Assembly (NCBI GenBank): GCA_001899315.1
Contig: MOYA01000004.1
Location: 54,477 to 118,476 of the forward strand
Direction of reading: 5' to 3'
From: Candidatus Obscuribacter phosphatis
Lineage (GTDB): Bacteria > Cyanobacteriota > Vampirovibrionia > Obscuribacterales > Obscuribacteraceae
Length of the DNA stretch: 64,000 bases
The notes beneath the pieces are model-generated. The model worked only from the letters and a program-made list of their open reading frames with translations, was not told where the DNA came from and made no database searches. A program made the position numbers and the translations under genes. Positions 4,023-59,055 of this stretch are shown one piece after another (position 1 is the first letter of the stretch; the number at the start of each line of letters is the position of its first letter).

Positions 4023-4477
4023 CCGCCCCAAGCCCAGAACCCCTGCCTTGAAGCTCGAAGTTAGAGCCTGGTTTTAGACTCTCGCGCTAGCCTGGCCAAG
4101 GCAACTGAACTATCAGTAGCTATTTTGAGACTTTCTCGACGCCTTTATGAGTGCGATTAAACGCTGACAGAGCTTCTATTACAGGCGTTTTATTGCTTGC
4201 TTGAGGCGATTTCTCTAGGGTGAAATCTAATACTCTAACTCCTCCAACACCAAGACCAGAAAAAAAGACTCTTCCCCAAGATCTACCGACAGCTTCAGAT
4301 ATAGTCGCGCTCTAGCTCGGCCTGCTTGTCGACACGCGCTTCTGTAGCCCTGTCTGTCGCTCGGACAGTTCTCAACCTGCAATGTGACCTGGTTTTCACG
4401 CTCATCATCATTTCTGCTTCGTCTTAGAAAAGCCGAAATGTGTTGCCTATTTCGAAACTTTCCATCTGGAGACAGAT

Positions 4478-5473: not shown

Positions 5474-6373
5474 TTGAACTTTTTGGCTTCAAAACACGTC
5501 TTTAACTACAGCGCCAAAAGCTGCCCAAACGCCCTTGCTAAAGGTTCCAAAGTAGGGAGAAAACTTCTCGTGGAAAATGACAGTAACAATTTTTCTCTAG
5601 AGTCGACTGCAAAAGATAAAGAGAGATTCAAAAACTCCAAACGCAGAACTTACGGTTCTCTGGATTTCGTCAAGCGATTCATATCGAACCTGAGTATGGA
5701 AACGATGTTCACAACAAGAGAGCTGCTGCCTCTGGTTCAGTATCGAAGTGTTTTAGACACATTCTTGTCTCGTGCCGTTAAGTCTGGTTACCTGGAAAGA
5801 CTAGCTCGTGGAGTTTTCAGAGTCAGCACTCGCATTACTAGATTTGTTACCGACGAGGAGATAGTGGCAGTGAAGCGCAAGTCGTTTAACAATCTCGTTC
5901 TGACGACAGAGAAGTCGCGCACAGAGCTAAAGATAGTCACTACAAGGAAACCAAAACCTGATGTGCCTTGCGTAATGCGTCAACCTGAGTTCCAAACACT
6001 AGGCACACAAACCAGTTTGCAGACAAACTTGGTCAATTTACTTGATACCGTAAACGGAGCCAAATACGTCCAGTGCTCAAGCAAGATCTTATTGCGACCA
6101 ATCGGCAACAGGAAGGCCGCGCTTGGAGAAACCAGAGTAGGACGAATTCTTAGAGAAATTTGGGACAAAGGAAAGGGCAAAACCACTAAAGAGGAGATAC
6201 AAGAAATCTGCGGTCGCTTGAGGAGAGAAGAAAGAATCGAACTAGTAAAGCTGCGAAAATTCATACCGCAATGGCTGAGTGAAATGCTTCCAAAAGCACC
6301 AGCAGCAGCTCTGTATAGAATCCTCGAAGAGACTCATAAGAAAAAGAGCAGATCACGAAGATTCAGCCTATAG
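5474..6373 (+). CDS. basic hypothetical protein with AbiEi-like winged-helix segment
   Basis: 299-aa ORF; TTG start is uncertain. FTTRELLPLV..LDTFLSRAVKSGYLERLARGVFRV resembles the L-x-R-L-x-x-x-G-x-L-x-R-(L/V)-x-R-G-V-(Y/F) motif of AbiEi-type antitoxin N-termini. Lys/Arg-rich C-terminus. Confidence 0.5.
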   Translation: MNFLASKHVFNYSAKSCPNALAKGSKVGRKLLVENDSNNFSLESTAKDKERFKNSKRRTYGSLDFVKRFISNLSMETMFTTRELLPLVQYRSVLDTFLSRAVKSGYLERLARGVFRVSTRITRFVTDEEIVAVKRKSFNNLVLTTEKSRTELKIVTTRKPKPDVPCVMRQPEFQTLGTQTSLQTNLVNLLDTVNGAKYVQCSSKILLRPIGNRKAALGETRVGRILREIWDKGKGKTTKEEIQEICGRLRREERIELVKLRKFIPQWLSEMLPKAPAAALYRILEETHKKKSRSRRFSL

Positions 6374-13829: not shown

Positions 13830-15914
13830 CTACTTAATCGCCTCGATCTTGATCAGCTTGGGACCGAAACGATCCGAACTTTCCGGGTCGTCCTGCGGCA
13901 CTTGGCCCAAGACCGGATTGCGCTTGCCGTTCGAACCATCCGGGTAGGGATGCAGTTCGTCCATGCGCTTCTCCACCATGGGTGCAGTTACCACCGAGAG
14001 ATGCGCCCGGGTCAGTTCCCAGGGAGTGCGCACACCGGCTGTCTTGAGGAACATGAGCAGGGACCGCTGCAGGACCATGTTGTAGTTGGCCACTTTCACA
14101 TACTTGTCCTGCGGATCAAGACCACGACGCAGACGGGGGTCTTGAGTCGTAATGCCGGTCGGGCACTGATTGGTGTGGCAGCGCAGAGCCATGATGCAGC
14201 CTTCGGCAATGAGGTTGCCACGGCCGATGTTGACCATGTCGGCGCCCATGGCGATAGCAATAGCCACATCATCGCCGCGAGCAATTTGACCAGAGGCGAT
14301 GAGCACGGTTTCGTCGCGCACACCATGCTTACGCAGGATGTTGTCGACGATGGGAATGGCATGCAAAATAGGCAGACCAGCGCGATCGGCTAGGTCGACC
14401 GGTGCTGCACCAGTGCCGCCCTCGCCACCATCGATGGTGATCCAGTCCGGAGCCTCGCCGCTCTCCTTCATGTAGCGGGCGATCTCTTCGATGGCTTCTT
14501 CTCGACCGACGACAATCTTGATGCCGACCGGCTTGCCGGTGGTTTCTTGCATCAGTTTGACGAAGCGGAAGAGCGAAGGCACATCGTTGAATTCGTCCCA
14601 GGCATTGGGAGAATAGCAGTCTTCGTTCTGGGGAATACCGCGCCAGAGAGCCAGCTCGGGAGTGATCTTTTCTTTCGGCAACTTACCGCCCTGACCGGGT
14701 TTTGCACCCTGAGCCAGTTTCAGCTCGAAGCCGACGATCTGATCGTTCTCCGCCACCTGCCGCACCTTTTCCAGGTCAAGCATGGTGAAGGGCTGTTCCA
14801 TTGCCTGTCCGGCAAAGCGATAGATGCCGCGCAGGGTCTGCTCGGCAATGGCACGGGTGACCGACTTGCGGAAGCCAAACTTGGCCGGGCCAAGCTGGAC
14901 GATGATGCGACCACCGCCCACCACTTCGCCGGTCGGTTCGGTCGGAACCGAAACCAGACCAAAGGTCAGCGACGAGAGCAGCTTACGCACTTGCCAGCGC
15001 GTTTTCTTGTCGGCCTCCACCCGTTTGACCACGCCATCCAGGTGATAGGGGGTGAGCCCGCCTTCACCGGTGAGCATGTGGATATTGGCCAGCTTGGCAC
15101 CACTCGACAGAGCCTGAACAGCTTCAGCCGAGAGAGCACCCCAGCTCATGCCCGAGATATTGATCGGCCACGGACAATGGTAAGGCTTGCGGCGCTTGGC
15201 ACCGATGACCAGGGGCGGCAGACGGTTGCCCATGCGCTCGGTATCAGGAATCGGGAAGAGCCCCGGCAAGATATGGATCTCGCCTTCCTGATTGTATTTG
15301 CGCTGGGTGCCGAAGCCCAAGTTGTTGTTGATGCCCTTGGCGGAGCGATAAATATAGCGCCGAGTCACCCGATTATAGGGCGCCTCCTCGGTATCGCTCA
15401 TAAACCAATACTGCCGCAATTCGTCGCCGATGAGCTCGAAGCCATAACGGCACCAGCCAATGAGCGGGAAGTTGCGACGGATGGTGTGCTTGCGCTGCAG
15501 AAAATAGTCGTGCACGGCCACCTGGGTGAGGAAGGTCATGAGGGCAAAGATGAGCCCCGCCATTTCACTGAGGAAATGCCAGCCCAGCCACCAGGCCAGG
15601 AAGGTAAGACCGAGCGAAACAGGCAAGGCCACACTTTGCCTTTGCACGAACTCGTTGATGGAAACCTGGATGGCCACGGCCAGAACGCCGAGCACCAAGC
15701 CGTATTCCAGACCGGCGAAGCGCCAGCCCAGGGTTGTGGCAATGATGGTGATGGCAACAATGGCGTGGTGATGACGCTTGAGGTCGCGCACGCTCAAGGC
15801 GAGAGCGCCGCCTACGATTGTGAATGCCAGAGCCGAGGCGCCACCGTCGCCGATTGTCCAACCGGCTAGACCGCCAAGTAGCGCCAATGCTGTTGCAAAG
15901 ATGATCCAGAACAT
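13830..15914 (-). CDS. FMN-binding glutamate synthase family protein (GltS FMN domain) with N-terminal TM region
   Basis: ORF 13830..16079 trimmed to ATG 15914 (MFWIIFATAL...). PWPINISGMSWGALS, LTGEGG, KLAQGAKPGQGG, TIDGGEGGTGAAP and CHTNQCPTGITTQ are typical of the family. Confidence 0.85.
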   Translation of the reverse strand: MFWIIFATALALLGGLAGWTIGDGGASALAFTIVGGALALSVRDLKRHHHAIVAITIIATTLGWRFAGLEYGLVLGVLAVAIQVSINEFVQRQSVALPVSLGLTFLAWWLGWHFLSEMAGLIFALMTFLTQVAVHDYFLQRKHTIRRNFPLIGWCRYGFELIGDELRQYWFMSDTEEAPYNRVTRRYIYRSAKGINNNLGFGTQRKYNQEGEIHILPGLFPIPDTERMGNRLPPLVIGAKRRKPYHCPWPINISGMSWGALSAEAVQALSSGAKLANIHMLTGEGGLTPYHLDGVVKRVEADKKTRWQVRKLLSSLTFGLVSVPTEPTGEVVGGGRIIVQLGPAKFGFRKSVTRAIAEQTLRGIYRFAGQAMEQPFTMLDLEKVRQVAENDQIVGFELKLAQGAKPGQGGKLPKEKITPELALWRGIPQNEDCYSPNAWDEFNDVPSLFRFVKLMQETTGKPVGIKIVVGREEAIEEIARYMKESGEAPDWITIDGGEGGTGAAPVDLADRAGLPILHAIPIVDNILRKHGVRDETVLIASGQIARGDDVAIAIAMGADMVNIGRGNLIAEGCIMALRCHTNQCPTGITTQDPRLRRGLDPQDKYVKVANYNMVLQRSLLMFLKTAGVRTPWELTRAHLSVVTAPMVEKRMDELHPYPDGSNGKRNPVLGQVPQDDPESSDRFGPKLIKIEAIK

Positions 15915-15963: not shown

Positions 15964-15983
15964 AATAACCGATATCGGTTATT
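15964..15983. promoter_or_regulatory. perfect 20-bp palindrome AATAACCGATATCGGTTATT (copy 1)
   Basis: Self-complementary. Lies 50 nt upstream of the gltS-like start (15914) and downstream of the pepN-1 stop (16117). Identical core at 30583-30602. Confidence 0.7.
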
Positions 15984-16116
15984 CAAAAAACTGACTGAGC
16001 AGTTTTCTTTCGCCGATAGGTCATGCCGGCCCCTGTTTTCGGTTACGTCAATTGCTTGGCTTGAGCCGATAAGCTTCAACGCTTAGGCACTTCCTCTTGG
16101 AAAAACCTATTCGTCT

Positions 16117-19017
16117 TTAGCCCACCGGCTTTTCGCCGCCGTTAGAACTGGGGACGGTCACAGAAGTCTGGTCCGCTGCCGGACCCTTCTGAGCTTCCCC
16201 GGAATTGTTGTCGGTTTCAGACTGGCCATTTGCGGTCTGCCCTTCCACCGCAGTCTTGGAAAGAGCGCCGGAAGCACCCTCCTTCACTTCGGGAGGGATG
16301 CAACCGTGCGCATCGGCCGGAAGCAGGTAGTTGACCAACGCCTCTTTCTCAGCATCGACGGCCTGCCGCAGCAGAACATTGATGCGCAGCTGTTCCAGAC
16401 CCTGGGCCAGCTGCATGCGAGTGGTCTCCACCGGATGCGCTTCGAAGAAAGCCTTGATGTCGGCTTCCTGCTCGGCGGTATCGAGAGCGCTGAGGCTGCC
16501 GAAGAGGCGGCCGATCATGCTCTCGGGCCACATGCTCTTGAGCTTGGCCCAGTTCTCCTTGATCACCTCCCAGGTACGAGCGCTCGAGGCCTCGCGAGCC
16601 AAAAGCGACCGCAGGAAGAAAGCAGCGTCCTGGACGCGGATACCGCCACCGATGACCAGGTTGAGCGAACGCTCCACCAGAGCCTTGTCGCCGAAGCGAG
16701 TGAGCAAGAACATGAAGCGCTCCTGCTCCTGCGGAGAAGCAGCGGTCTGACGCAGCTGGTCGAACTCGTCGTAGAGAGCAGCATCGCCGTTGCGCGCCAG
16801 CACGCCGAGGAAGGCGTCGAACATGTCGCTATCCACCGAAGCCGGATCTTTCTTCCAGGCTTCGTAGGCTTCGCGAGCCTTGACCTTGATCGGCTCATAG
16901 TTGCCGACGATGCCGAGGGTGCGCACCACCTGCGTGCGCAGTTCCATGCGCTTGGTGTCGCCCTTGTCTGCCGCGGCGTCGAAGCCGAGCTTCTTGATGA
17001 GCGGCTTGAAGAGCGAGCGCACCTTGCCCGCCACCGCCTCACGCGCCGGACCGGTGAAGAGCCCGTGCAGGTGAGTGAGAGCATCGGCGATGCAAGCCCA
17101 GACATTGGGATCTTCGCTGCCGCCCATGTAGTCAACCAGCTTGAGGAACTCGCTCACCTTGACCTGGCCGGCGCGAGTGGCGCTCCAGGTGTCGTTGAGC
17201 AGGTTGAACTGTTCCACCGGACCCATGGCCTTCTTGAGCACGGGCAGCAGCTTGCCGAGCAGTTCGGACGAGTAGTTGACACGGAAGAAGCCATCGCCGA
17301 AAGCGTTGACCACGACCCATTCCATGTTCTCGCCCACATAGACGACTTCCTCCGCCTTGTTGAGGACGAAGGACTGTTCCACCAGCGCGCCTTTGCACAT
17401 GGCGCGGATCTTGACCGGGATGGGCCAGATGGGCGACTTGCCGTCCCGCGCCAGAACCTTGAATTCCTTCTGGCTCAGACGCACAAAGCCCGGCATCTCG
17501 GCAGCTTCCACCTTGAGGATGGGATGACCCGAGGTGAAGACCCACTTGTTCATGATCTCCATCACCGAGATATTGACGCCGACCTTGCGGCAGCCCTCGT
17601 CGAGAGCGCCCCAGAAGTCGTCGCCGACCGTGTTGCCGAGATGGTGACGCTTCAGATAGATGCGCACACCTTCGCGGAAGGCATCGGCACCGATGAACTG
17701 CTCGATCATGCGCAGAACGCTGCAACCCTTCTCGTAAGAGATCAAGTCGAAGATCTCGTCGATCTGGAAGGGGTTGTCCACCGCCACCTGGATGGGATGG
17801 GTGGAATGAAGCTGGTCGAGGTCGAAGGCGCTGGCCCGGGAGGCAGCGAAGGTCTCCCAGGTCTTCCACTCGGGGAACATGGCGTCGACACCCATGTTTT
17901 CGAGCAGGGTGGCGAAGCTCTCGTTCAGCCAGAGGTTGTCCCACCAGTCCATGGTGGCGTCGTCGCCGAAGCGCATGTGCACCAGTTCGTGCACGACCAC
18001 GTGGGCAACCCGCTCACGCTCCTGCTGGGTGGCAGTGGCCTCGTCCAGCAAAAGATCGGTCATGCGATAGATGATGCAGCCCAGGTTCTCCATGGCGCCG
18101 GCCGCGAAGTCGGGCACAGCGATGAAGTCGATCTTGTCGTCACCGATGTACTTGGTCTGGCAGTAGTCTTCCAGCCAGCCATAGGCGAAGGCACCGACCC
18201 GCTGAGCGAACTGCAGCTGATGCTCGCTGCCCGGGATGGTCCAGAAGCTCAGCTCCACGTCGCGCACCTTGACCGTGCCGCCCAGCGCCAACTCACCAGC
18301 CATGAAAGCCAGGTAGTAGGTGGACATCTTGGGCGTGGTGGCGAACTCGACCCGCTTGAGCAGGCGCGGCTCGGCGTGACCGTGGAAGTGACCGCGCTCG
18401 ACCAGCTCATGCGGCGTCTCCACCGACATGGTCGACTCGCTCACCGGCCGCATGCAGGACAGCGCCTGGTAGCCGTGGGGCACATTCAGGGTCACCTTGA
18501 AGGTGGCCTTCATGTTGGGCTCGTCGAAGCAGGGGAAGGCGCGGCGCGCATCGGTGGCTTCGAACTGGGTGGTGGCGATGACGTGCTCCTTGCCGCTCTC
18601 GTCCTTCCAGACGCTGCGGTAGAAGCCCTTGAGCTCGTCATTGAGCGTGCCGGCGAAGTTGAGCTTGAGGCGCCAGGCACCCTTGCCCACCCGTCCGTTG
18701 AACTTGAGGGTGGAACGCTGCAGAGCTTCGTCGGAAGTGACCTCGGCAGCGAACTCGGTGCCATCGGCGTTCTCCACCGTCACCTTGCCGAGCTTGAGGT
18801 CCTTGGTATTGATGAGAATTTCCGCGGTCGGCGAGAGCACATCGATGTCGATGGCCACCGAGCCGAAGAAGGTCAGGTGTTCAAAGTCGGGCGTGAGCTC
18901 AAGGTCGTAGTGACGAGGCAGAACGTGACGGGGCAGACGATACTTGTCCCCCGTAGCCACCGCCAATGCAAGACCATTGAAGCTACCCTTGTGTTTGCAG
19001 TTTCGCAACATGCACAT
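16117..19017 (-). CDS. pepN: M1 family aminopeptidase N (GC-rich copy)
   Basis: AAGGAG SD. GAMENLGCIIYR, HELVHMRFGD-x-WLNESFA (HExxH-x18-E), an ERAP1-like C-terminal region, and a low-complexity tail. Confidence 0.9.
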   Translation of the reverse strand: MCMLRNCKHKGSFNGLALAVATGDKYRLPRHVLPRHYDLELTPDFEHLTFFGSVAIDIDVLSPTAEILINTKDLKLGKVTVENADGTEFAAEVTSDEALQRSTLKFNGRVGKGAWRLKLNFAGTLNDELKGFYRSVWKDESGKEHVIATTQFEATDARRAFPCFDEPNMKATFKVTLNVPHGYQALSCMRPVSESTMSVETPHELVERGHFHGHAEPRLLKRVEFATTPKMSTYYLAFMAGELALGGTVKVRDVELSFWTIPGSEHQLQFAQRVGAFAYGWLEDYCQTKYIGDDKIDFIAVPDFAAGAMENLGCIIYRMTDLLLDEATATQQERERVAHVVVHELVHMRFGDDATMDWWDNLWLNESFATLLENMGVDAMFPEWKTWETFAASRASAFDLDQLHSTHPIQVAVDNPFQIDEIFDLISYEKGCSVLRMIEQFIGADAFREGVRIYLKRHHLGNTVGDDFWGALDEGCRKVGVNISVMEIMNKWVFTSGHPILKVEAAEMPGFVRLSQKEFKVLARDGKSPIWPIPVKIRAMCKGALVEQSFVLNKAEEVVYVGENMEWVVVNAFGDGFFRVNYSSELLGKLLPVLKKAMGPVEQFNLLNDTWSATRAGQVKVSEFLKLVDYMGGSEDPNVWACIADALTHLHGLFTGPAREAVAGKVRSLFKPLIKKLGFDAAADKGDTKRMELRTQVVRTLGIVGNYEPIKVKAREAYEAWKKDPASVDSDMFDAFLGVLARNGDAALYDEFDQLRQTAASPQEQERFMFLLTRFGDKALVERSLNLVIGGGIRVQDAAFFLRSLLAREASSARTWEVIKENWAKLKSMWPESMIGRLFGSLSALDTAEQEADIKAFFEAHPVETTRMQLAQGLEQLRINVLLRQAVDAEKEALVNYLLPADAHGCIPPEVKEGASGALSKTAVEGQTANGQSETDNNSGEAQKGPAADQTSVTVPSSNGGEKPVG

Positions 19018-30109: not shown

Positions 30110-30469
30110 ATGACCAGCGATCAAGAACTGAAAAACCGCATCGCAAGTGCACTCTACAATGCCGACCCTGAAGGTCTGGCCGTAACTGCTGCACCCAGCG
30201 ACGAATACTCATCCGAAGCCGAAATCATCATGGATCGCCTTGCTGAGATCAACTCAGCCAGCGACATGGCGGTGCTGATTGCCAACGTCTTCCGTCGGCA
30301 ATTCGGATGGGGCACAGTAGCAAATGCTTCTCAGTCAGAGCCTTCAGATCACGAATGGGCGGAAGCTCAGCCGCTGTATTCCGAGGCCGAGCTAGACCAA
30401 ATCTACAATCCTGAATCAGAGGTATACAAAATCCTCGGTCAGGAAATATGGAACCTGGTCAACGATTGA
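30110..30469 (+). CDS. small acidic hypothetical protein
   Basis: AGAGGA SD, 119 aa, followed by a strong terminator. Confidence 0.6.
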   Translation: MTSDQELKNRIASALYNADPEGLAVTAAPSDEYSSEAEIIMDRLAEINSASDMAVLIANVFRRQFGWGTVANASQSEPSDHEWAEAQPLYSEAELDQIYNPESEVYKILGQEIWNLVND

Positions 30470-30540: not shown

Positions 30541-30581
30541 GCAGAGCCTGATAGCGCAATCAATCAGGCTCTGCTTTTTTT
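30541..30581 (+). terminator. rho-independent terminator
   Basis: 12-bp stem GCAGAGCCTGAT / ATCAGGCTCTGC followed by T7. Confidence 0.85.
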
Positions 30582-30603
30582 GAATAACCGATATCGGTTA
30601 TTC
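30582..30603. repeat. perfect 22-bp palindrome GAATAACCGATATCGGTTATTC (copy 2)
   Basis: Self-complementary over all 22 nt. Directly abuts the terminator T-run, in a convergent intergenic region. Confidence 0.85.
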
Positions 30604-30806
30604 AGTTACGAGCAAATACCGCAACCAAATAAAAGACTATTTTTTTTAGCCAATTCTGCTACTGCATTACGTAGTAACAAACGCTAGGAAGCCAGCTCAT
30701 GCTGTTTAGAAGCCAAAGCCATTTACCTACGAAAGGTCCTCCCGCATACGGGCCGTCTTACATTTGCTCAACATACATTTCACAAAAATAAATCAGTCAG
30801 TCATTC

Positions 30807-32132
30807 TCAGCGTTTCATGCATATAGAAAGCACTGTTCCCGTCCTCAGCTTACGCATTCTGTCAGAACCCACATAACCTCGAGCCAGACAACTCGCAAAA
30901 ACATAACCCCTAACCTCGGACCTCTCAGATGGACCTTGAAGTTTAGAAGAGAATTGCGGGCAAGAAGAGAAGAAATTGCTGCCAATAATCGGACGAGGCA
31001 AAACAAACTGCGTTGAATTAGCAATGATGTGCATCAAGCCGCTGTATACGTAGAGATACTTTCTACTAATACGTCGACAATAATCTACGAGCAGCTCCAT
31101 AAACTCAAAGCAAGCCTTCTCAAGATTCTCTCGACTTTCACTTTGTACTCTTCCTGAACAAAGAGAACTTTGACACTTTGGCTTGCCGATAGCTATAGAG
31201 CAATCTGCTAAGCCTGATGAGTCAGAATTTCCGCCGTCTGGCTCCGCAACCCTGATCTTGAGTTTGCATCCCGGAAGAGACTCTATCAATCCATAAATTT
31301 GAAGCATGGCTATAGTTGAGTTAACTTCTGCAGTTGAGACATCCAGTTTGGCGCAAATCGAATCAATTTCATCACATCCGTTAGCAATAACAGCTAGCAC
31401 TTTAGATTCGAGTTCCGAAAGGTTTTCGCCAGAAGATGACTGATGAGGTTCAATCTGACTTGGGTGTCCAGTAATATTGGAAACACTAACGGCCGAGCTA
31501 GAAGCAGGCGCCTCACTAAAGTCGTGAACTTCAAATTCAACATCGACAGACTCTTCTTGACTCTCACAATTGGAGCGCTGCTCGTATAAGCGTTCGGCAT
31601 TTTCTTCATAGCAAGGATGCAGCCACATTGGTGAAGCAAGGCTTCTTTTGGCAAAAACAAAACTGAAGTGCGATGAGCTAAACTCCTTACATTCGCTGCA
31701 CTTAGCTGCCGCAGCTGCGTCAAGAATTGAGCGAGTTAAATTCAGGGCGGAAGAGTACGCAAGGCCAGTCAAAGCGCACAAGAAACTAGAATTGACTATA
31801 ACTCCATGTTCGTACAACCAAATGGCTGAAAACCAGGCTCTTATATTCCTTACGCGCTCGAAAAATGTACCAGCAGTCAGGCTCATGCGTCTTTTACAAA
31901 TCAAGCATTTGAACTCTCTAGAACCTTCTTGAATCTCAATTTGGTCCGAAAGACAAAGACGACAATATAAAAAACCACCACTAGTCAAGCTATCAATCAA
32001 GTCTCTCCAGCAAGTCTCAGGGTCTGGATAGACTTCATAGAAGGAACGCCACACACTACCTACATATTCTATTTTGTCTCTAGAATCGCATCGTTTGGCT
32101 ATCTCAACTAAGCCTTCTTCTAGTGGTCTCAC
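30807..32132 (-). CDS. IS1595-transposase-derived protein lacking DDE core; Zn ribbon plus DprA-like winged helix (paralogue A)
   Basis: ORF 30807..32270 trimmed to GTG 32132 (AAGGAGG 7 nt upstream). CRLC...CLIC..SLTAGTFFERVRNIRAWFSAIW..LTGLAYSSALNLTRSIL; central acidic linker plus LSELESKVLAVIANGCDEIDSICAKLDVSTAEVNSTIAMLQIYGLIESLPG; C-terminal RRISRKYLYVYSG. Confidence 0.7.
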   Translation of the reverse strand: MRPLEEGLVEIAKRCDSRDKIEYVGSVWRSFYEVYPDPETCWRDLIDSLTSGGFLYCRLCLSDQIEIQEGSREFKCLICKRRMSLTAGTFFERVRNIRAWFSAIWLYEHGVIVNSSFLCALTGLAYSSALNLTRSILDAAAAAKCSECKEFSSSHFSFVFAKRSLASPMWLHPCYEENAERLYEQRSNCESQEESVDVEFEVHDFSEAPASSSAVSVSNITGHPSQIEPHQSSSGENLSELESKVLAVIANGCDEIDSICAKLDVSTAEVNSTIAMLQIYGLIESLPGCKLKIRVAEPDGGNSDSSGLADCSIAIGKPKCQSSLCSGRVQSESRENLEKACFEFMELLVDYCRRISRKYLYVYSGLMHIIANSTQFVLPRPIIGSNFFSSCPQFSSKLQGPSERSEVRGYVFASCLARGYVGSDRMRKLRTGTVLSICMKR

Positions 32133-32208
32133 TTGATCGTCCTCCTTACTCCTATAAGTAAGAACGTAATTTCGAGAGAAAAAGTTCAAAAGATTGAGAT
32201 AAATTCTG

Positions 32209-32228
32209 AAAAACCGATATCGGTTATT
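32209..32228. promoter_or_regulatory. 20-bp palindrome copy 3 (AAAAACCGATATCGGTTATT, one mismatch)
   Basis: 77 nt upstream of the paralogue A start. It lies inside the spurious N-terminal extension of the raw ORF. Confidence 0.7.
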
Positions 32229-32640
32229 CCGAAAATCAAGAAACCAAAAAACAAAATTCTTTTGGTCCAAGGCAAACCAGATTTCATTAAATCTGCTTGA
32301 CAGCGTGCCAGCTATTCAGTAGTCTTGCCTTGAGACATTTGTCTCGTTTTGCAGGAATCACTTACCAAACCTACCAATCCAATCATCTTCATGCTTAAGT
32401 GCTTGATGGTGTGTTCCCTCGGCTGATAATGATAAGGCTCCTAGCTTTTGCTGGATCTATCAAATAGGCAGGCAACACCCCTTTCAACTCATTCAGCATA
32501 GTACCCAGCCTCTCAAAAACTTGAGGCATTGACGATAGCACTTGCACAGTTGTCAATTGCTTCTACCGGAAAAATATTGGGTATGAACTGACTTAGTTGA
32601 AAACAGGCATCTTAAGGTGCAGAATTGCCAGGAGAATGTC

Positions 32641-33849
32641 ATGAACTTAGTCAAGAAACAGCGCGAGAACCGCTATCGACTGGGAGAGCTTTTTCTAGAA
32701 ACTGGTCTAGTGGACGGTTCAGCAATTTCTGAAGGACTTTCGATTTCTAAGAGAACATCCTTTCCCATAGGACGCGTTCTCGTAATGACAGGATGGCTGG
32801 ATGATCATGATGTGAATTGCGCCTTGGAACTGCAAAATCTTCTCAGAGAAGGCACCATAGACAATCGTCTCGCCGCTGACCTGCTCAGATTCTGCCACCT
32901 CAACAAAGTAGACATAAATGAATCCTTCAGACTTAACGGCATTACAAGCTCCGGAGAATCTCCTCAAAGTAGACTAGGCAGGCTTTTCTTTGCTGCCGGA
33001 ATCGTTGATGAGAACCAACTAGCACAAGCTGGTCGAGAAGCTCAGCGGCACGACATGACGCTAGGAAGCGCGCTTCTCATGCTCCGCTTCGTATCTCAAA
33101 AGACACTCGAAGGTGCACTCAATTTACAGGTGATGCTCAGAGATGGCAAAGTCACCTTCCCCGAAGCTCTTGCATTTTGCAAAGAAATGCACGAGCGTCA
33201 AGTTAGCCTCAGAGAGGTACTAGGTGATAACGGCAAACTCGTTCGTTCTAACAGTGCCGCTCCAAGAATCGGAGAGTTCCTAGTTGCTGCGCAGTTAGTT
33301 AAGAATACTGAAGTTCTTACTGCTTGCGAAATCGGCACAGAGGAAGATAACAACATTGGCAGAGTCCTACTAAGCAGAGGACAACTTTCAGAATTGGTTT
33401 TGGAAGCTGCTCTCAAGCTCCAGAATATGATGCAGTCGAGAGTCTTTACATACAGAAGGGCGGTTAAGCTTCTCAGACTCGTCTATAAGCTAGGTGCACC
33501 GCTAGAACAAATAATTGAAGAATCGCAAGCCCTTGATGATGTTTTCAAACTACTAAGAAGAGCCGCAATAGTCCCTGAGAAGATTGTGCGAGATGTTGCC
33601 TGCGAAATTGTTGACTTTGAAGACACCGTCGCCGAAGCCCTCCTCTCAAGGGGATATATCAATCCTATTCATGCTCGCATAGGTCTAGCCTGCTTAGAGC
33701 GCATCAGAAATGGAGAAATATGTGAAGACAAGGCAGCATTTCTCATCTACCACTGCTGCAACAAACCCGGACAAGAAATGGAAATGTTTAGCCGCATTAA
33801 TTGGTCAGAACTTCGCCGCCTGCAGCTCAGACAGGACTTACTAGTATAG
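32641..33849 (+). CDS. protein of three tandem T2SSE_N/MshEN-like modules
   Basis: ORF 32617..33849 trimmed to ATG 32641 (AGGAG SD). Three modules of about 90 aa, each built as 24-aa motif, 5-aa spacer, 24-aa motif (details in findings). Confidence 0.7.
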   Translation: MNLVKKQRENRYRLGELFLETGLVDGSAISEGLSISKRTSFPIGRVLVMTGWLDDHDVNCALELQNLLREGTIDNRLAADLLRFCHLNKVDINESFRLNGITSSGESPQSRLGRLFFAAGIVDENQLAQAGREAQRHDMTLGSALLMLRFVSQKTLEGALNLQVMLRDGKVTFPEALAFCKEMHERQVSLREVLGDNGKLVRSNSAAPRIGEFLVAAQLVKNTEVLTACEIGTEEDNNIGRVLLSRGQLSELVLEAALKLQNMMQSRVFTYRRAVKLLRLVYKLGAPLEQIIEESQALDDVFKLLRRAAIVPEKIVRDVACEIVDFEDTVAEALLSRGYINPIHARIGLACLERIRNGEICEDKAAFLIYHCCNKPGQEMEMFSRINWSELRRLQLRQDLLV

Positions 33850-50552: not shown

Positions 50553-53228
50553 TTAGTTTCTCTGGGTCAAGCATTTCACGTCCGGATAGTAGTGCTTAAG
50601 TTGAGCTTGAATCACCTTGACATCTTCCAATTTACCACTCTGTCTGGCTCTTTCCAGCTTGGTCGATAGAGCCAGCCAGTTGGACGGATCGATCATGATG
50701 GCCTGGTCGACTATTTGGTCCACCAGCCAACGGCCTAGATCTTCAAGGTTTCTAATCACTGTTACTTTCTGACCTTTGTCGCCTGGCTGCTTACTGTCTT
50801 TGGCATGCTTGCTTTCTTTGGCATCTTTTGTCTGCACCTTCATGGGTTTGCGGCTGCTTTCCAGCCGGGCTAAAAAGTAGCCGGAATAAGCGAGAACTTC
50901 TGGGTCGGTAGGCGCCATTAAGACCGCCTTACTGATTTTTTGCTTGGCAGAATTGAGATAGTCTATGCTCGGATTCTGGCTGGCATACAAAAATCCCCAA
51001 ACGGCAAGCACTCTTGCTTGTATAGACTTGTCGCGTGAACTTTCAGCTAAGTTATAGGCTTTGAGAAGCTGCGCCTCAGCCTCTTCTAAAACCTTTTCAC
51101 GTTCACGCCCTTCGCCATGCCCATCCAGAGGTTTATCAACTAAGCCGATTTTTTCTTTCGCCTTGGGACTGCTTTTTAGATCGCCCTGCTCTGCATTACC
51201 GGCATGATCACCTGAAATATTACTCGCAGCGCCGCTGAGCAGTTGACTGGTGAGAGGTCTAAACAAAAACTCAGGACTAAAGTCACCACCAGCTTTCTGA
51301 CAAAGGGCTTGCGCCAACTCAATACGCACCAGAGCCTCTGCGCCGAAGAGTTCTTTGTGATGCGCAGTATCGGCTAGCTTCTCCAACTCTCTAATTGTAG
51401 GACCGAGATTGCGACTTTTGAGCAATTCCAAACGAAGCGGAGCGAGCTTGTGCTGGTACTCCCAAAACGATTTCTGTGACTTACTTTGGCTTAGAATAAG
51501 CCTTTGATTTCTATAGTCGAAAGTTACTTTGTATCGACTCAAAAGCGGATTGCCGATGATCGCTAAATCTGAAGAAGTAATAATGCCGGTCTGCTGGCTG
51601 CCTTCCTTACCAGGAGCAACACTAAACACCGGTCCATCGATACGCAGATTATCCAATTCCAGATAGTTGAACTTGACTGAACCAGTTTCAACCAACTTGC
51701 CGTCCAAGCCCTTCAGCTGTCCTGTGCGATAGAGCGGATTAGGAATAAGCGACTTGACTCGACTTTCAGAAACATTGTTAAAGGCAGCACCGGTATCAAG
51801 CAAGAAAGAAACCTTTTGCTTACCGTCAAAACTACCTTCCACAGCTAGTCCAGACATGCCCAGACTGGGTTTGGTATTAACTATGATGGCACCATCAGCC
51901 ACCTTGCTTTTGCGAGGATCATCAAAAGTAACCTTGCCGTTCTCATAATCAACTGTGACCAAGAAACGCTTCAAGACATTGGCGCCGATTAAACCAGCCG
52001 GTTTTTCTTTTTGTATTGTTTCAAACCCAGATAGGTCAGCCACAGCGCAAGTAACGTCTTTTAGTTCCATGTCACCCAGGGTGAATGTATTGAACTTGAC
52101 TCCGTCAGCCTTGATAGAACCGGCTCCGGTGGTCATGGCAATACTTTCTTCCGGCTTGGTTGCCGCTTGTGCCAGCCCGGAGAGTTCCTTCATAAAGCGC
52201 TTGTCTAAAATAGACTGGGTAGCACCGGTGTCGAGGATGAACTTAAGTTCGTTTGTGCCGTTAATTTTAGCCCTGACCAAGATTTCATTGCCGACATAAT
52301 CAAATGGAATGGTGACCGGTCCAGCTTGCAGGCGCAAGGGTAGCTTCTCTTCCGGCATGGCAAAATCGGCATCGGTGATTGTCTCGTCGATCTTTAAAGA
52401 GTCGATGCGGGTTTCAGATACCAACTCTTTGCCGCTGAACTCTTTGACGACGAAAGGCTGCATTGTCCCTTCTACTTCGCGATAATCTTCGTAATGGTAG
52501 AGCTTGTCTATCTTTATGCCGCGCTCTAGATCAACACCAGGATAACTGCTGGCTAAGACCAGATAATTCTCCTTGTCTATGTAAAAGCTGGTTGGCACGC
52601 CGTCATTGGCGTAAATCAACAAAGTTTCACAAGGGCGACCGGCGATGACCACCGGCTTACCAAGCTCTAGTGAAGCCTCAGGAATAGATTCGAGCAATAA
52701 GAGTCCATGGTTGATGTCTTCTTCGATGCGCTTGGCGGTGATCGCATCAGCAGGCATAACAGTATCGCCCTGCTTGGTCCAACAAATTTTGCCGTCATAG
52801 ACAGTTGTATGAGGCTGACCAAGCAAATTAATGGTGATCATCTCTTTCTCGCGCTTAACCAAAAGGTCGCAACCGAAAGAGTTAGTCGACTTGGACAAAG
52901 CCGAAGTCTGGACAATTTTGCCGCTGGCTCGACAGGGTTTATCGTTGAATTTCTTATATGCTTCAAAACCGCCCAATTTAGCCAAGACTTTCTCAGCCAG
53001 CTTGACCGCCTCGCTATCACGCCTGGCTTTCAGCTTGACAGCTTCATGCCCTTTGCTGCGACTCTCAGATAGAGCATAGGCAGAAGGCGTATTTGCTAGA
53101 GAAAGAAAGGCAGAAAGGCTAGATATTGGCAAAATCGGCAGAGACAGTGCCAGCGCTGCTAGCGGCGCAACTACCAGAGTTGCTCGTTGTTTACTGACAC
53201 GATGTCTCTTTTGAAAGAAGCTAGGCAC
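50553..53228 (-). CDS. secreted protein with two retropepsin-like aspartic protease domains
   Basis: GTG start with AGGAA upstream; signal peptide. Two D-T-G-A motifs (KFILDTGATQSILD and SFLLDTGAAFNNVS), each followed about 90 aa later by an (I/L)IG(A/N) flap/dimer-type motif. Helical C-terminus. Confidence 0.7.
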   Translation of the reverse strand: MPSFFQKRHRVSKQRATLVVAPLAALALSLPILPISSLSAFLSLANTPSAYALSESRSKGHEAVKLKARRDSEAVKLAEKVLAKLGGFEAYKKFNDKPCRASGKIVQTSALSKSTNSFGCDLLVKREKEMITINLLGQPHTTVYDGKICWTKQGDTVMPADAITAKRIEEDINHGLLLLESIPEASLELGKPVVIAGRPCETLLIYANDGVPTSFYIDKENYLVLASSYPGVDLERGIKIDKLYHYEDYREVEGTMQPFVVKEFSGKELVSETRIDSLKIDETITDADFAMPEEKLPLRLQAGPVTIPFDYVGNEILVRAKINGTNELKFILDTGATQSILDKRFMKELSGLAQAATKPEESIAMTTGAGSIKADGVKFNTFTLGDMELKDVTCAVADLSGFETIQKEKPAGLIGANVLKRFLVTVDYENGKVTFDDPRKSKVADGAIIVNTKPSLGMSGLAVEGSFDGKQKVSFLLDTGAAFNNVSESRVKSLIPNPLYRTGQLKGLDGKLVETGSVKFNYLELDNLRIDGPVFSVAPGKEGSQQTGIITSSDLAIIGNPLLSRYKVTFDYRNQRLILSQSKSQKSFWEYQHKLAPLRLELLKSRNLGPTIRELEKLADTAHHKELFGAEALVRIELAQALCQKAGGDFSPEFLFRPLTSQLLSGAASNISGDHAGNAEQGDLKSSPKAKEKIGLVDKPLDGHGEGREREKVLEEAEAQLLKAYNLAESSRDKSIQARVLAVWGFLYASQNPSIDYLNSAKQKISKAVLMAPTDPEVLAYSGYFLARLESSRKPMKVQTKDAKESKHAKDSKQPGDKGQKVTVIRNLEDLGRWLVDQIVDQAIMIDPSNWLALSTKLERARQSGKLEDVKVIQAQLKHYYPDVKCLTQRN

Positions 53229-55688: not shown

Positions 55689-56492
55689 TCAGGGTCTCGA
55701 AAGGCGCAAACGCATAGTCAAACCGAAGGCTGCCAGTAACTTCTGGTAGGTGAGCAAACTGGCATTTTGTCCCCGCTTAATACGAGTTAGGCTCTGACAG
55801 GAGATTCCGCATGCGTCCCGCAAGAATGTCGGCGAATAGGCAGCAGTAAGCCTAGAAATTAATGCTGAGATGCAACGCACCACCTGGTTGGGGGCACAAA
55901 CCGTCTCGCCGCAGAAAGCAGCAGGTGACACGCTATCTCTAGAAATAGAGGCAAGACTGGTGCTTGACTCTAGACCCCTATCTTGTTCAAGCTTGTCGAC
56001 AGGTGACTGCCTGTAGTTTGGATTTAGTGCTTTCACCGGTTTGACCGATCTGGCAGAACCTAGAGGACTTAGAGGATTGAGAGGACTGACACAAACCACC
56101 AATTTCAAATTACTGGCTTCAGCGATGTCCACAAGCGTAGAGAGCCTAGGCACGCGCCAACCTTTCAGACAACGCCGCAAAGTTGCCTCTGAAACGCCGG
56201 TCCAATAGCTGACCAGCTTGCCCAACAAGTTGAGATCCTCGCATTGAAAATGAAGGCACAAATCGTAGACCAAAGGTCTGGTCATTAAGACTGTGTTTCT
56301 ATGCGCCAACTCGCAAAGCAAACCGAATTCAGAAATATTAGAGGCATAGCGCAGCTTCCTCTCTTGCATAACAGAATCAAAACTAGCCTCGTCTCTATTG
56401 CGTCTTTTGGCGACTTTTCGGCGAGCGAGTTTGCTTGTCCTAGCTGTTTTTGAAGAGTTAGACTGCTCTGAAGATTCTCTGTAGTTATTCAT
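55689..56492 (-). CDS. DNA-binding protein with two XRE-like HTH segments
   Basis: ORF trimmed to ATG 56492 (GAGGTG SD). Basic N-terminus (KLARRKVAKRRNR). GVSEATLRRCLKGWRVPRLSTLVDIA and GISCQSLTRIKRGQNASLLTYQKLLAAFG look like HTH_XRE cores. Confidence 0.55.
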   Translation of the reverse strand: MNNYRESSEQSNSSKTARTSKLARRKVAKRRNRDEASFDSVMQERKLRYASNISEFGLLCELAHRNTVLMTRPLVYDLCLHFQCEDLNLLGKLVSYWTGVSEATLRRCLKGWRVPRLSTLVDIAEASNLKLVVCVSPLNPLSPLGSARSVKPVKALNPNYRQSPVDKLEQDRGLESSTSLASISRDSVSPAAFCGETVCAPNQVVRCISALISRLTAAYSPTFLRDACGISCQSLTRIKRGQNASLLTYQKLLAAFGLTMRLRLSRP

Positions 56493-56527
56493 TAAAACGC
56501 ACCTCAATGTGTAAACTAGCTAATTTG

Positions 56528-56540
56528 GAAAACCGATATA
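56528..56540. promoter_or_regulatory. half-site GAAAACCGATAT of the palindrome family
   Basis: Identical to the left arm of the 32209 copy; the right arm is not conserved. 36 nt upstream of ATG 56492. Confidence 0.35.
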
Positions 56541-56933
56541 GACGCGAGGCAAGGCGCGATGAGGCTTTGCCACACCGAGAGAAAAGCTGTATCTATAGAC
56601 AAACTGGCTTGCACCAATCTAGGGCATCCTAAGGGTCTTGCTCGTCTTTAGTTAGGTTGATCAGAACCTAGACTTAGACAGAGCTTGATGCCGCTCGCAT
56701 CTCAAAACCACTAATATAGGAACGCTTGTGTCGGTGTTTCTCTTGTCTTGCCCGCGCAAAAAATCTGAATCGGTTCACCAGAATCTAGCCAAAGCCAATA
56801 AGGCGAGTAAACCGAAAAGACAAAGAAAAGCGCGTAATTCTCCCAGAATTCTGATTATGAGATGGTTTTGGCAACTAGATTAGCCATCTTAGGATCGTTG
56901 CTACAGAGAACCAATCGCGTTAATATAGGGGCG

Positions 56934-57494
56934 ATGAAGAAGAACAGAGTTATCTTTGACGGCGGCGATTTCTTGATTAGAGATTTCATTAGGGATGATG
57001 CCGAAAGCCTTGCCTTGAGCGGAAACGATCGCGAAGTTTGGCTATGCCTTAGAGATCGCTTTCCAAGCCCCTATACCAGAAGGGACGCTCTAGACTGGAT
57101 AGACTTAGTCAATAATTCCAACCCGAAAATCAACTTTGCCATTGATGTAGAAGGCAGAGTAGCAGGCGGAATCGGTCTGATGCTACAAACAGATGTCGCT
57201 CGTGTAAGTGCCGAAATCGGATATTGGCTCGGCAAAGAATACTGGGGCAAAGGCATCATGACCAAAGCCGTATCAGGCATGTCGGAATGGGCCTTCTGCA
57301 ATTTACCAATCACCAGATTGTACGCACTTGTTTTCGACTTCAACAAAAGTTCTGCTCGAGTTTTAGAAAAATGCGGCTATCAGCTGGAAGGACGTCTGCG
57401 CAAAGCTGCCATCAAAGATGGAAAAGTTGTAGACGAACTTCTATACGCAAAAATTAGAGATGAACTGAGCACTGAAGCAAAACTTCAAAGCTAG
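56934..57494 (+). CDS. GNAT N-acetyltransferase (RimJ/RimL-like)
   Basis: ORF trimmed to ATG 56934. IGYWLGKEYWGKGIMTKAV and NKSSARVLEKCGYQLEG are typical GNAT motif A/B contexts. Confidence 0.8.
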   Translation: MKKNRVIFDGGDFLIRDFIRDDAESLALSGNDREVWLCLRDRFPSPYTRRDALDWIDLVNNSNPKINFAIDVEGRVAGGIGLMLQTDVARVSAEIGYWLGKEYWGKGIMTKAVSGMSEWAFCNLPITRLYALVFDFNKSSARVLEKCGYQLEGRLRKAAIKDGKVVDELLYAKIRDELSTEAKLQS

Positions 57495-58936
57495 AAACTG
57501 AGAGAAATCTCGACTGTCATCGGTGTGGTAAAGGCCCTCAACTTCCTAGAACCAATATAACCAGTCCTAAGACAGTTATCCAGAAGCTGCAGTTTAAGCC
57601 GGTTTCTGGACTCATCTCTGAGAAAATGTAAGACCGCCTCAGAACCATCGCTCTCATCTAAAATACCTGGTATAAAGCGAAGTGCAGAACCATATATTTG
57701 CAAATACTTTCTTGATATTCCACCAAAAATAAAGTTTATGCCAGCTTTGAATGCTTCCAAAGATAGCCGCAGAGCCGCTTCCCCATCAAATCTCTGACAA
57801 AACAAACATCTATCTGCTAAGCATTTCCGAATTGCTCTCTTTGTTAAGGAAAGCTTGTCTCTGCGCTCATATCTAAGATCTGCAGAGCGCCAACTAGCAT
57901 GCACGTCGCCATTCTCCAATCCATCAAAATACACATGCCTTTCGTAATCAGGACCTTTGAACTCCTGGTCCTCTCCCTCCCAGAATGAACCTGTATCTTC
58001 AGATTCGGCACTATCATTATCAAATGAACTAGCATTCGAAACTCTGTTTTTCACAACTGAAAATTTCAAACCAGCTAGTTCCTCAATTAGACCTTCTATT
58101 TGAAGCTCGGTCATTACTGCTGAGATATCAGAAATGGAGCGACCCAACACCTCACAAAGATCATCAAAACCCAGTGGTCTATCGCCCAGTACTGCCAATA
58201 AAGAAAAGGCTAGTTCTCTCTGCTTATCATCTGAAAAACAACTTTCTACTATATCCGAAGGCTTTGAGCATTCCGGATCATCTGCTGAGTCATTATCAAA
58301 ATCACGCTCTTTGTAGTAGGCATTCTCACTACTTTTCTCTGCAGATTCACCATGATCATTAGATTGGGAGCTAATTCTAGAATGGAGACGGCCCTCGTAA
58401 ACTTCTTCTTCAAACGGCCTAAGCCATCTAGGAGTTGCTAGACTACGCCTAGAAAACAAATCTAAAAAGTGTACGCTACTAATACAAACTCTCTCTTCCT
58501 TGTCCTTTTCTGATAGATCTACCGCAGCAAGAAGACTCTTTAATATGTGCTGTGCCGAAGAAATGCGAAGCCCAGACAAATCTGCAAGCATCAGTGAATT
58601 AACAAGTGCACCTCGCTCAAGCAGCCACATAGCCCCAAGCCAAGCACGCAGTTTTCTGACACCGGCAAAAAATGTTCCAGCAGATAAGGAAGAAGTTGAG
58701 TGACATTTAGAGCATCTAAATTTTCGGTGCCCATCTTTGAACTTAAGAGACTTGCTGAAACATTTGTGACAGAACAAAGCATCCTTCTCTCTGAGCTTGC
58801 CGTTCAGCCAAGACCAACAAAAATCTTCAGTCGGATAGGCAAGCTCAAACTCATGCCAAATACTCTTTACGAACTGATCTCTTCTGTCGCGTATCGCTGG
58901 ATCTTCGTGGAAAGAACGAAAAAATGGCTGTGACAT
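57491..58936 (-). CDS. IS1595-transposase-derived protein lacking DDE core (paralogue B)
   Basis: ORF trimmed to ATG 58936. CHKC...CSKC..SLSAGTFFAGVRKLRAWLGAMW..LSGLRISSAQHILKSLL; acidic linker; LLAVLGDRPLGFDDLCEVLGRSISDISAVMTELQIEGLIEELAG; GGISRKYLQIYGS. Confidence 0.7.
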   Translation of the reverse strand: MSQPFFRSFHEDPAIRDRRDQFVKSIWHEFELAYPTEDFCWSWLNGKLREKDALFCHKCFSKSLKFKDGHRKFRCSKCHSTSSLSAGTFFAGVRKLRAWLGAMWLLERGALVNSLMLADLSGLRISSAQHILKSLLAAVDLSEKDKEERVCISSVHFLDLFSRRSLATPRWLRPFEEEVYEGRLHSRISSQSNDHGESAEKSSENAYYKERDFDNDSADDPECSKPSDIVESCFSDDKQRELAFSLLAVLGDRPLGFDDLCEVLGRSISDISAVMTELQIEGLIEELAGLKFSVVKNRVSNASSFDNDSAESEDTGSFWEGEDQEFKGPDYERHVYFDGLENGDVHASWRSADLRYERRDKLSLTKRAIRKCLADRCLFCQRFDGEAALRLSLEAFKAGINFIFGGISRKYLQIYGSALRFIPGILDESDGSEAVLHFLRDESRNRLKLQLLDNCLRTGYIGSRKLRAFTTPMTVEISLSF

Positions 58937-59019
58937 TTTCAACACCTTGAGAGGTCCTGTTACTAATAACGATGTCAATAGGAAAAAAGTTCAATTTTTC
59001 CTTCGATTTTTATCTTTGA

Positions 59020-59055
59020 ATTTGATCCGGAGCCGATACCGGTTCCGGATCAAAT
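59020..59055. promoter_or_regulatory. 36-bp near-palindrome with CCGATACCGG core
   Basis: ATTTGATCCGGA GCCGATACCGGT TCCGGATCAAAT: perfect 12-bp arms, 32/36 positions symmetric. Lies between divergent genes (58936 minus, 59207 plus). Confidence 0.7.

Follow-up and report, generated by a model that had tools for sequence, protein, structure and literature searches.

The recruitment of transposase DNA-binding domains is a route well known in eukaryotes. Available accounts of eukaryotic transposase-derived transcription factors (e.g., ZBED6, FHY3/FAR1, and those of the THAP/CENP-B type) describe proteins that kept the DNA-binding domain, lost the catalytic core, and act at specific genomic sites. 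For prokaryotes, a search of the literature returned no description of such recruitment, nor of the domestication of an IS1595 transposase. A second group of described systems that bears on the present locus is that of promoters dependent on ECF sigma factors (e.g., EcfG and SigE), which are of the GGAAC-N16-17-CGTT type. To our knowledge, known ECF promoters do not feature an upstream palindrome.

Here, we consider a palindrome from the chromosome of Candidatus Obscuribacter phosphatis, which belongs to a phylum of nonphotosynthetic relatives of cyanobacteria with few cultured members. The window, which is the whole stretch of 64,000 nucleotides that was analyzed, is ordinary chromosome with genes for seryl-tRNA synthetase, M1 peptidases, pantoate ligase, acyl-CoA dehydrogenase, and similar proteins. 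It is also a place where a prokaryotic transposase DNA-binding domain appears to have been recruited as a site-specific chromosomal DNA-binding protein, p441. We propose that the palindrome is most likely a docking site for p441, ahead of its reading as a mobile repeat or a terminator. The features on which this proposal draws are collected in Table 1.

Table 1. Palindrome copies, putative promoter motifs, and associated genes in the window
Feature	Position	Strand	Description
Copy 1	15964..15983		Exact 20-mer; centre ~60 bp 5' of the start of a Glu_synthase-like membrane gene, 13830-15914(-)
Intrinsic terminator of the 119-aa gene 30110-30469(+)	30541..30581	+	12-bp GC-rich stem, loop, T7; immediately 5' of copy 2 and separate from the palindrome
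Copy 2 (flagged palindrome)	30581..30604		Perfect 24-bp palindrome with halves TGAATAACCGAT and ATCGGTTATTCA; 204 bp 3' of the p441 stop; convergent genes either side
p441	30807..32132	-	441 aa; IS1595-type N-terminal Zn-ribbon/HTH, central DprA_WH-like winged helix, C-terminal helical region with SRKYLQxY
Putative ECF-type promoter motif of p441	32163..32189	-	TTGAAC-N17-CGTT; CGTT ends 30 nt before the GTG start
Copy 3	32208..32229		GAAAAACCGATATCGGTTATTC, 22 bp, one T.T/A.A mismatch pair; lies where p441(-) and the MshEN-domain gene(+) diverge
MshEN gene	32617..33849	+	410 aa; comprises three MshEN-like c-di-GMP-binding domains; diverges from p441
Lone half-site	56527..56541		GGAAAACCGATATAG; 36 bp 5' of the double-HTH gene, 55689-56492(-); doubtful significance
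p495/p481, paralog of p441	57491..58936	-	BLASTP 28% identity, E 1e-45; start from the L156 gene call
Putative ECF-type promoter motif of p495	58968..58994	-	TTGAAC-N17-CGTT
Diverged family palindrome	59021..59054		TTTGATCCGGAGCCGATACCGGTTCCGGATCAAA, 34 bp, upstream of p495; one copy in the window

An initial annotation, made from the sequence of the window, had described GAATAACCGATATCGGTTATTC at 30582-30603 as a perfect palindrome. It is present as claimed, with its extent slightly understated: the true perfect dyad, copy 2, spans 24 bp (30581-30604) around the core CGATATCG. The recurrence of the 20-mer AATAACCGATATCGGTTATT was borne out as well, with exact matches at 15964-15983 (copy 1) and 30583-30602 and a match with one mismatch at 32209-32228 (copy 3). 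The 14-bp core AACCGATATCGGTT is the same in all three, and each has the T-rich flank on one side that had been noted. Such recurrence is negligible by chance, as evidenced by dinucleotide-preserving shuffles, of which 0 of 100 contained any 20-mer match at ≤3 mismatches. The T.T pair of copy 3 falls at position 8 from the centre, and this asymmetric variant is kept in the orthologous loci L145 and L020 (protein identity, 72 to 75%). Rfam had no match at the palindrome sites, and a literature search with the core sequence returned nothing relevant. A 15-bp stretch upstream of copy 1, CGCCGATAGGTCATG at 16019-16033, has a partial likeness to the core (CCGATAGG); it pairs with one palindrome arm in an RNA fold, which is probably incidental.

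Copy 2 lies between the convergent genes 30110-30469(+) and 30807-32132(-), upstream of no gene, and 1 nt after the T-run of the plus-strand gene's terminator, as first described. The stem of that terminator (30541-30574, followed by the T-run at 30575-30581) is conserved in the related locus L020, where its loop has changed. Copy 1 also directly follows a weak hairpin and T6, downstream of an M1 peptidase gene, 16117-19017(-), a context that had escaped the initial annotation. Together with the L148 palindrome, which is followed by TTTTT, and with a bidirectional terminator at locus L109 that has the same core, these placements would be expected if the palindrome were itself part of an intrinsic or bidirectional terminator. 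We consider this very improbable. The palindrome stem is AT-rich and weak, the terminator scan did not call it, and a separate canonical terminator precedes the palindrome both at copy 2 and in L150. In the window, an A-run or mixed sequence follows the hairpin on both strands, so that the suggestion that the element adjoining the terminator is part of one is unsupported for want of a U-tract on either strand. Moreover, because the upstream neighbour is divergent at 5 of 11 family loci, there is nothing to terminate at those five. The same findings speak against the palindrome as an insulator. The L109 sequence (4549-4585, in a Melainabacteria MAG of 34% GC) is a 36-bp perfect palindrome, AAAAAAGGGAAAACCGATATCGGTTTTCCCTTTTTT, between convergent genes; it was rejected as a family site, being an ordinary, textbook bidirectional terminator that has the core in common by chance.

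Comparison with relatives shows that the copies have stayed in place. The window is 83 to 91% identical at the DNA level to contig JAIETF010000053.1 of a Candidatus Obscuribacterales MAG (loci L020 and L060), and copies 1, 2, and 3 all occupy orthologous positions there. The footprint is clearest at copy 2, where GAATAACCGATATCGGTTATTCAGT is unchanged in L020, leaving the palindrome 100% conserved within convergent intergenic DNA that has diverged heavily. Copy 2 is also kept in L145, L118, and L121 and copy 1 in L060 and L129, while the orthologous locus L145, whose protein is 75% identical, retains both copies 2 and 3. These two copies bracket p441 and lie 1,626 bp apart in the window and in L145 and 1,614 bp apart in L020. 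The surrounding gene order is also stable among relatives.

Copy number appears to be low. One metagenome contains a 98.5%-identical strain. In it, the exact 20-mer was located on three stretches of contig, namely, those of copy 1, copy 2, and L138, and the L138 contig, at 230 kb, has a single exact copy. A degenerate 18-mer pattern was scanned against a genome collection; among the matches listed, most were chance matches in unrelated taxa, and those on the relative's 149-kb contig fell at three orthologous places. These counts tentatively point to a low-copy element clustered around p441 rather than to a REP-like family.

The same comparisons bear on the idea that the palindrome is a REP/MITE-like hairpin, mobile now or formerly, that spread to intergenic sites with p441 as a RAYT-like mobilizer. 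Two copies identical over 20 bp and a third with one mismatch would be expected of such an element, as would the transposase ancestry of p441, its position between two copies (RAYT genes lie between REPs in this manner), and the adjacency of copies to terminator T-runs or stop codons. However, all three positions are conserved at 83 to 91% DNA identity, and two of them are conserved in L145. No target-site duplication or flanking direct repeat was seen at copies 1, 2, or 3, no HUH/Y1 or DDE domain was found in p441, and, in the five distant homologs for which the flank downstream was inspected, the upstream copy stands alone. The REP/MITE reading put forward in the initial annotation is thus disfavored by low apparent copy number, conserved positions, missing target-site duplications, and an undetected catalytic domain, and we regard it as quite unlikely. 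An origin from abutted IS ends, as in a circle junction, is also unsupported: the inverted repeats of ISApl4 and ISCsp2 have no similarity to the palindrome. Similarly rejected was the idea that copies 1 and 2 mark the boundary of an island around a high-GC block, since GC content is a mosaic, gene by gene, across the window (0.41 to 0.66 in 600-bp windows, with about 0.6 to 0.66 at 22.4-28.4 kb and 46-50 kb versus about 0.44 at 30-34 kb). The related MAG has the same mosaic, which therefore is not a recent island. Elsewhere in the window, 50553-53228(-) encodes a protein of 891 aa in which aspartyl protease domains of the retroviral type (Asp_protease_2 and gag-asp_proteas) are found.

The protein p441 is, by its sequence, a transposase-derived protein with two predicted DNA-binding modules and without a recognizable catalytic domain, a description that follows from N-terminal IS1595 homology and the failure to find a DDE core. 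That neighbouring proteins derive from IS1595 had been proposed earlier and was corroborated by hhalign against an annotated IS1595-family transposase (98.2% probability, E 5e-14, over the N-terminal 150 residues), in which family residues 23-172 align to residues 14-167 of the ISCsp2 transposase from plasmid pCNB. Likewise, tblastn with the N-terminus of a family member matched annotated IS1595 transposases with E values down to 5e-6, and PF12760 gave weak matches in 7 of 15 members. The hhalign alignment stops before the DDE part, and PF12762 had no match at E ≤5 in p441 or p495 and was not among the leading families at E ≤1 across the 15 members. Pfam, NCBIfam, and Foldseek detected only the Zn ribbon and winged helix and no catalytic domain. 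The sole Pfam match of p441 itself is the DprA-type winged helix (E 6.5e-7), which is matched by 15 of 15 family members. The N-terminal domain and the winged helix are confident in the AF2 model of p441, for which Foldseek returned generic winged helices alone (MarR, DtxR, and LexA types) at weak scores (E ~0.1).

Homologs of p441 form a sizeable family, with 647 clusters at 50% identity in a profile search at E ≤1e-30. The members are 350 to 480 aa long, and those that could be named come from Obscuribacterales and Melainabacteria MAGs and from one MAG labelled Chroococcales; all are annotated as hypothetical proteins. In the family alignment, a CxxC...CxxC ribbon is followed by TAGTFF..R..W..AIWL and an AYSSAL helix; the N-terminal HTH is the best conserved segment of the protein, and the SRKY..Y residues are conserved across the family. 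A search of viral contigs for further family loci gave one match, to the N-terminal part only. Just downstream of one family gene (P0015 in L151), a unit of about 20 bp, attcagtcatcgtcacgcgt, is repeated in tandem at least five times at positions 3930-4030.

The association between palindrome and gene was assessed at nine fetched homolog loci (pairwise identity, 21 to 49%) and at the in-window paralog p495. A palindrome centred on CGAT/ATCG lies upstream of the family gene at 9 of 9 fetched loci and upstream of p495; at the nine loci, the core is ACCGATATCGGT (ACCGAT/ATCGGT) or a one-base variant of it. By chance, an 8-mer core would be expected in 300 bp at about 0.005 per locus. The palindrome at 59020-59055 had been proposed to be kin to the main one, and this was upheld: a version of the core with two mismatches, AGCCGATACCGGTT, lies at 59031-59044, and the two palindromes are taken as related because each precedes a paralog of the same family. 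Since the neighbouring genes are different at every family locus, what stays constant beside the palindrome is the family gene. A second copy downstream was not found at the five distant homolog loci with an inspected downstream flank, and copy 2 is therefore best seen as a lineage-specific addition that would later have been kept under constraint. Overall, the presence of the core upstream in 10 of 10 independent homolog lineages favors the operator-type role that had been suggested for the IS1595-derived proteins.

A second constant feature of these loci is a putative promoter. All family loci carry TTGAAC-N16-17-CGT(T), whose end lies 26 to 37 nt ahead of the start codon or, in L155, 60 nt ahead of it. 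From motif evidence alone, it fits the ECF-sigma pattern of a -35 (G/T)GAAC, a spacer of 16 to 17 nt, and a -10 CGT(T/C); a sigma-54 reading was rejected after GG-N10-GC was not found by eye. In the 64-kb window, TGAAC-N17-CGTT occurs twice, each time upstream of a paralog (p441 and p495). Across 186.5 kb of family loci, TTGAAC-N17-CGT was observed 14 times versus 1.4 expected, and 11 of the 14 stand directly upstream of family genes. The palindrome lies 44 to 88 bp upstream of the motif at the nine homolog loci, and its centre lies 30 to 88 bp upstream of the putative -35 across loci, without helical phasing; for copy 3 this distance is 30 bp. A third TTGAAC-N17-CGT is found in the window at 5474-5499(+), with the form TTGAACTTTTTGGC...CGT as in L148 and L153. 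The gene that it precedes (about 5570-6373) encodes an AbiEi_4-like winged helix, is not homologous to p441, and lacks a CCGATATCGG palindrome. The ECF-type motif is, therefore, not exclusive to the p441 family.

Two further genes have the 20-mer upstream. Next to copy 1, no promoter was found, and a sigma-70 promoter starting from TTGAAT in the palindrome flank was rejected, with no -10 at the correct spacing. On L138, a paralog of the MshEN gene (2890-4128, minus strand) has the exact 20-mer 183 bp ahead of its start. The upstream positions of copy 1 and the L138 copy hint at a small regulon. The L138 20-mer also has bases in common with the stop codon of a GT2 glycosyltransferase gene. In the window itself, a block at 32297-32355(+), about 260 bp before the MshEN-domain gene, is fully conserved relative to L020 and holds a sigma-70-like TTGACA-17-TAGTCT, followed by a hairpin, GAGACAtttGTCTC, and TTTT; this block may act as a leader or attenuator or represent a small RNA.

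Could the palindrome instead be an operator that belongs to some other regulator, for example, the double-HTH protein (55689-56492) or another factor, with the p441-family genes as members of its regulon? The 12-nt arm reported at 56528-56539 does exist, within GGAAAACCGATAT at 56527-56539, 36 bp upstream of the double-HTH gene, but this half-site stands alone and its significance is weak. The proposed link to the double-HTH protein comes down to this one half-site, for which the sole comparison genome, at 97 to 98% identity, is uninformative. The geometry of palindrome and promoter, which is atypical for autoregulation, would also suit another regulator. So would the unrelated small HTH/RHH genes that stand beside the same 20-mer in other taxa. 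Nevertheless, in 10 of 10 lineages it is the family gene that accompanies the palindrome while the neighbours differ at every locus, no common second regulator appears in those neighbourhoods, and the p495 site has diverged in step with p495. We give this explanation little credence.

The sequence is not exclusive to p441, given its occurrence in elements without a family gene. Beyond the orthologs and L138, the exact 20-mer was found in metagenomes in two unrelated groups, and neither encodes a p441-family homolog. First, in a high-GC mobile-element (IME) group (loci L119, L120, L122-L124, L126, L128, L130-L132, L135, L136, L141, L143, and L144), the 20-mer and a second degenerate copy, in tandem and 42 bp apart, lie about 45 bp upstream of an ORF that begins MGRPPLGVKSTVVRL and looks RHH-like. 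In L122, the site is flanked by an integrase, an AlpA-like gene, and a relaxase. These sites appear to belong to an unrelated operator system. Second, in a gut Firmicutes group (L125, L127, L133, L137, L140, and L142), the 20-mer, which in L127, for instance, occupies 2055-2074, comes directly after a TTGAAT-17-TATTAT promoter. It is flanked there by a divergent gene for a 75-aa HTH protein of the Xre type and by a lipoprotein gene, with an IS3-like transposase nearby. Because perfect 20-bp palindromes number 4^10, or about a million, we read the two groups as convergent operators rather than as a sign of a common factor.

The arms of the palindrome raise a question of mechanism, namely, whether long, perfect, lineage-specific arms around a constant core reflect dimer recognition, a cruciform, or repair-driven symmetrization. 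At the nine loci, the arms measure 6, 9, 13, 13, 15 to 17, 17, 24, 26, and 30 bp. Symmetry is perfect over as many as 60 bp in L152, 52 bp in L150, and 48 bp in L146, with arm sequences that are lineage specific. In L146, L148, and L152, the first 12 arm nucleotides are common, and the outer arms are wholly different yet symmetric. Outer arms that diverge and stay symmetric require either selection for pairing, as a cruciform or hairpin, or a mutational process that symmetrizes them. Mismatches in imperfect arms are T.T, C.C, and A.C, with G.T only occasionally, and so lack an RNA-type wobble bias. Given this lack of G.U bias and the retention of the asymmetric variant in copy 3, selection appears to act on sequence rather than on pairing.

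The symmetric arms are also the ground for a reading in which the palindrome is a structural DNA site, where a transposase-derived protein carries out a transaction other than transcription. Under that explanation, the site would be extruded as a hairpin or cruciform or be nicked or cut at its centre, and arm symmetry would be a by-product of hairpin-templated repair or fold-back synthesis. Proximity to the promoter would merely reflect linkage of protein and site, as for transposases and their inverted repeats or telomere resolvases and their palindromes. The perfect arms of L146, L150, and L152, and the shared inner and divergent outer arms of L146, L148, and L152, are in its favor. It also gains from the very stable hairpins predicted for single-stranded DNA (-29.5 kcal/mol and a z of -11 in L150), the transposase descent of p441, the variable promoter distance, and the conserved SRKY..Y residues. 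On the other hand, Pfam, NCBIfam, and Foldseek detected no catalytic domain, the genes around the sites keep their order from one relative to the next, and the conserved asymmetry of copy 3 argues against obligatory symmetrization. In the lineage of the window, moreover, the arms are 10 to 12 bp long, and the predicted DNA hairpin is weak (-5.7 to -8.8 kcal/mol). We think such a structural site unlikely. The constancy of the core over deep divergence and the conservation of the N-terminal HTH rather favor sequence-specific recognition of the duplex.

On balance, we consider it probable that the palindrome is the cognate site of p441, that p441 regulates its own gene through the copy at 32209-32228, and that copy 2 is a lineage-specific auxiliary site. 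A p441 dimer would read the core via the conserved HTH, and copy 3 would provide feedback on the p441 promoter and perhaps also act on the divergent MshEN gene. Copy 2, being perfect, may be a second, stronger, high-affinity site at the 3' end of p441 that was gained and retained only in this lineage. There, it could support looping with copy 3 across 1.6 kb or let bound protein stand as a roadblock in the path of convergent read-through. Two further genes would come under p441 by way of copy 1 and the L138 copy. The lineage-specific but symmetric outer arms (perfect up to 60 bp) suggest that the sites are probably also prone to, or used for, extrusion as a hairpin or cruciform or have been symmetrized by templated repair.

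Several findings count against reading the palindrome as a p441 operator. The unphased spacing of 30 to 88 bp fits neither a classic overlapping repressor site nor the fixed-geometry site of an activator. Arms that are perfectly symmetric, lineage specific, and as long as 30 bp go beyond the usual needs of a dimeric regulator. No promoter was found at copy 1, copy 2 is upstream of no gene, and the same 20-mer occurs in unrelated elements that lack a family gene.

The locus offers a concrete candidate cis-trans pair for a sizeable family of hypothetical proteins, and the conserved putative ECF-type promoter would place the family in an envelope- or stress-type sigma regulon. More tentatively, we raise the possibility that an IS1595 transposase has been domesticated as a regulator that kept its Zn-ribbon/HTH, lost the DDE domain, and carries a winged helix. 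The result would be a Melainabacteria family of about 650 clusters with its own symmetric palindromes around a ACCGATATCGGT core and with sites dispersing to other genes in the present lineage. If this is true, a small regulon is taking shape through copies of a binding site of the transposase type, and the symmetric lineage-specific arms would imply that an extruded hairpin or cruciform is recognized or maintained, which would be unusual for a bacterial regulator.

How, then, does the pair of palindrome and p441 compare with described systems? The family motif TTGAAC-N16-17-CGT(T) resembles ECF promoters. REP elements and their RAYT genes are similar in combining a short intergenic palindrome with a transposase-related gene between two copies. 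They differ in that the present element has an apparently low copy number and positions conserved between species, its palindrome has no GTAG-type 5' signature, and p441 is unrelated to HUH/Y1 transposases. The two-copy bracketing is, in addition, confined to this lineage and absent from the five inspected distant loci. IS1595 transposases such as ISCsp2 and ISApl4 have a homologous N-terminus of about 150 residues that comprises the Zn ribbon and HTH. In contrast to them, the p441 family showed no DDE domain in alignments or searches, its gene is syntenic between species, and the p441 gene has neither IS-type terminal inverted repeats nor an 8-bp target duplication; the inverted repeats of two IS1595 members (TCTATTTAGCTCCAG and GGGGCTGTACTAGA) are unlike ATCGGTT. 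Eukaryotic transposase-derived transcription factors, as far as available accounts describe them, are alike in having kept a DNA-binding domain, lost a catalytic core, and acquired specific sites, which for p441 are predicted. Unlike them, p441 is bacterial and fused to a winged helix, and descent of its site from transposon ends is unsupported.

In kind, the palindrome and p441 are best described as closest to an autoregulated transcription factor and its operator, for example, of the MarR or ArsR type. Differences from such pairs are that the site does not overlap the promoter but lies 30 to 88 bp upstream of the -35, that its arms in some lineages reach 30 bp with perfect symmetry, that it is partnered by a putative ECF-type promoter, and that one copy lies downstream of p441. 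The p441 family, at 350 to 480 aa, also adds a transposase-type Zn-ribbon/HTH to the winged helix. What the candidate pair has in common with these regulators is a dyad site beside the gene for a winged-helix protein that is conserved across homologs, with a few extra copies in front of other genes.
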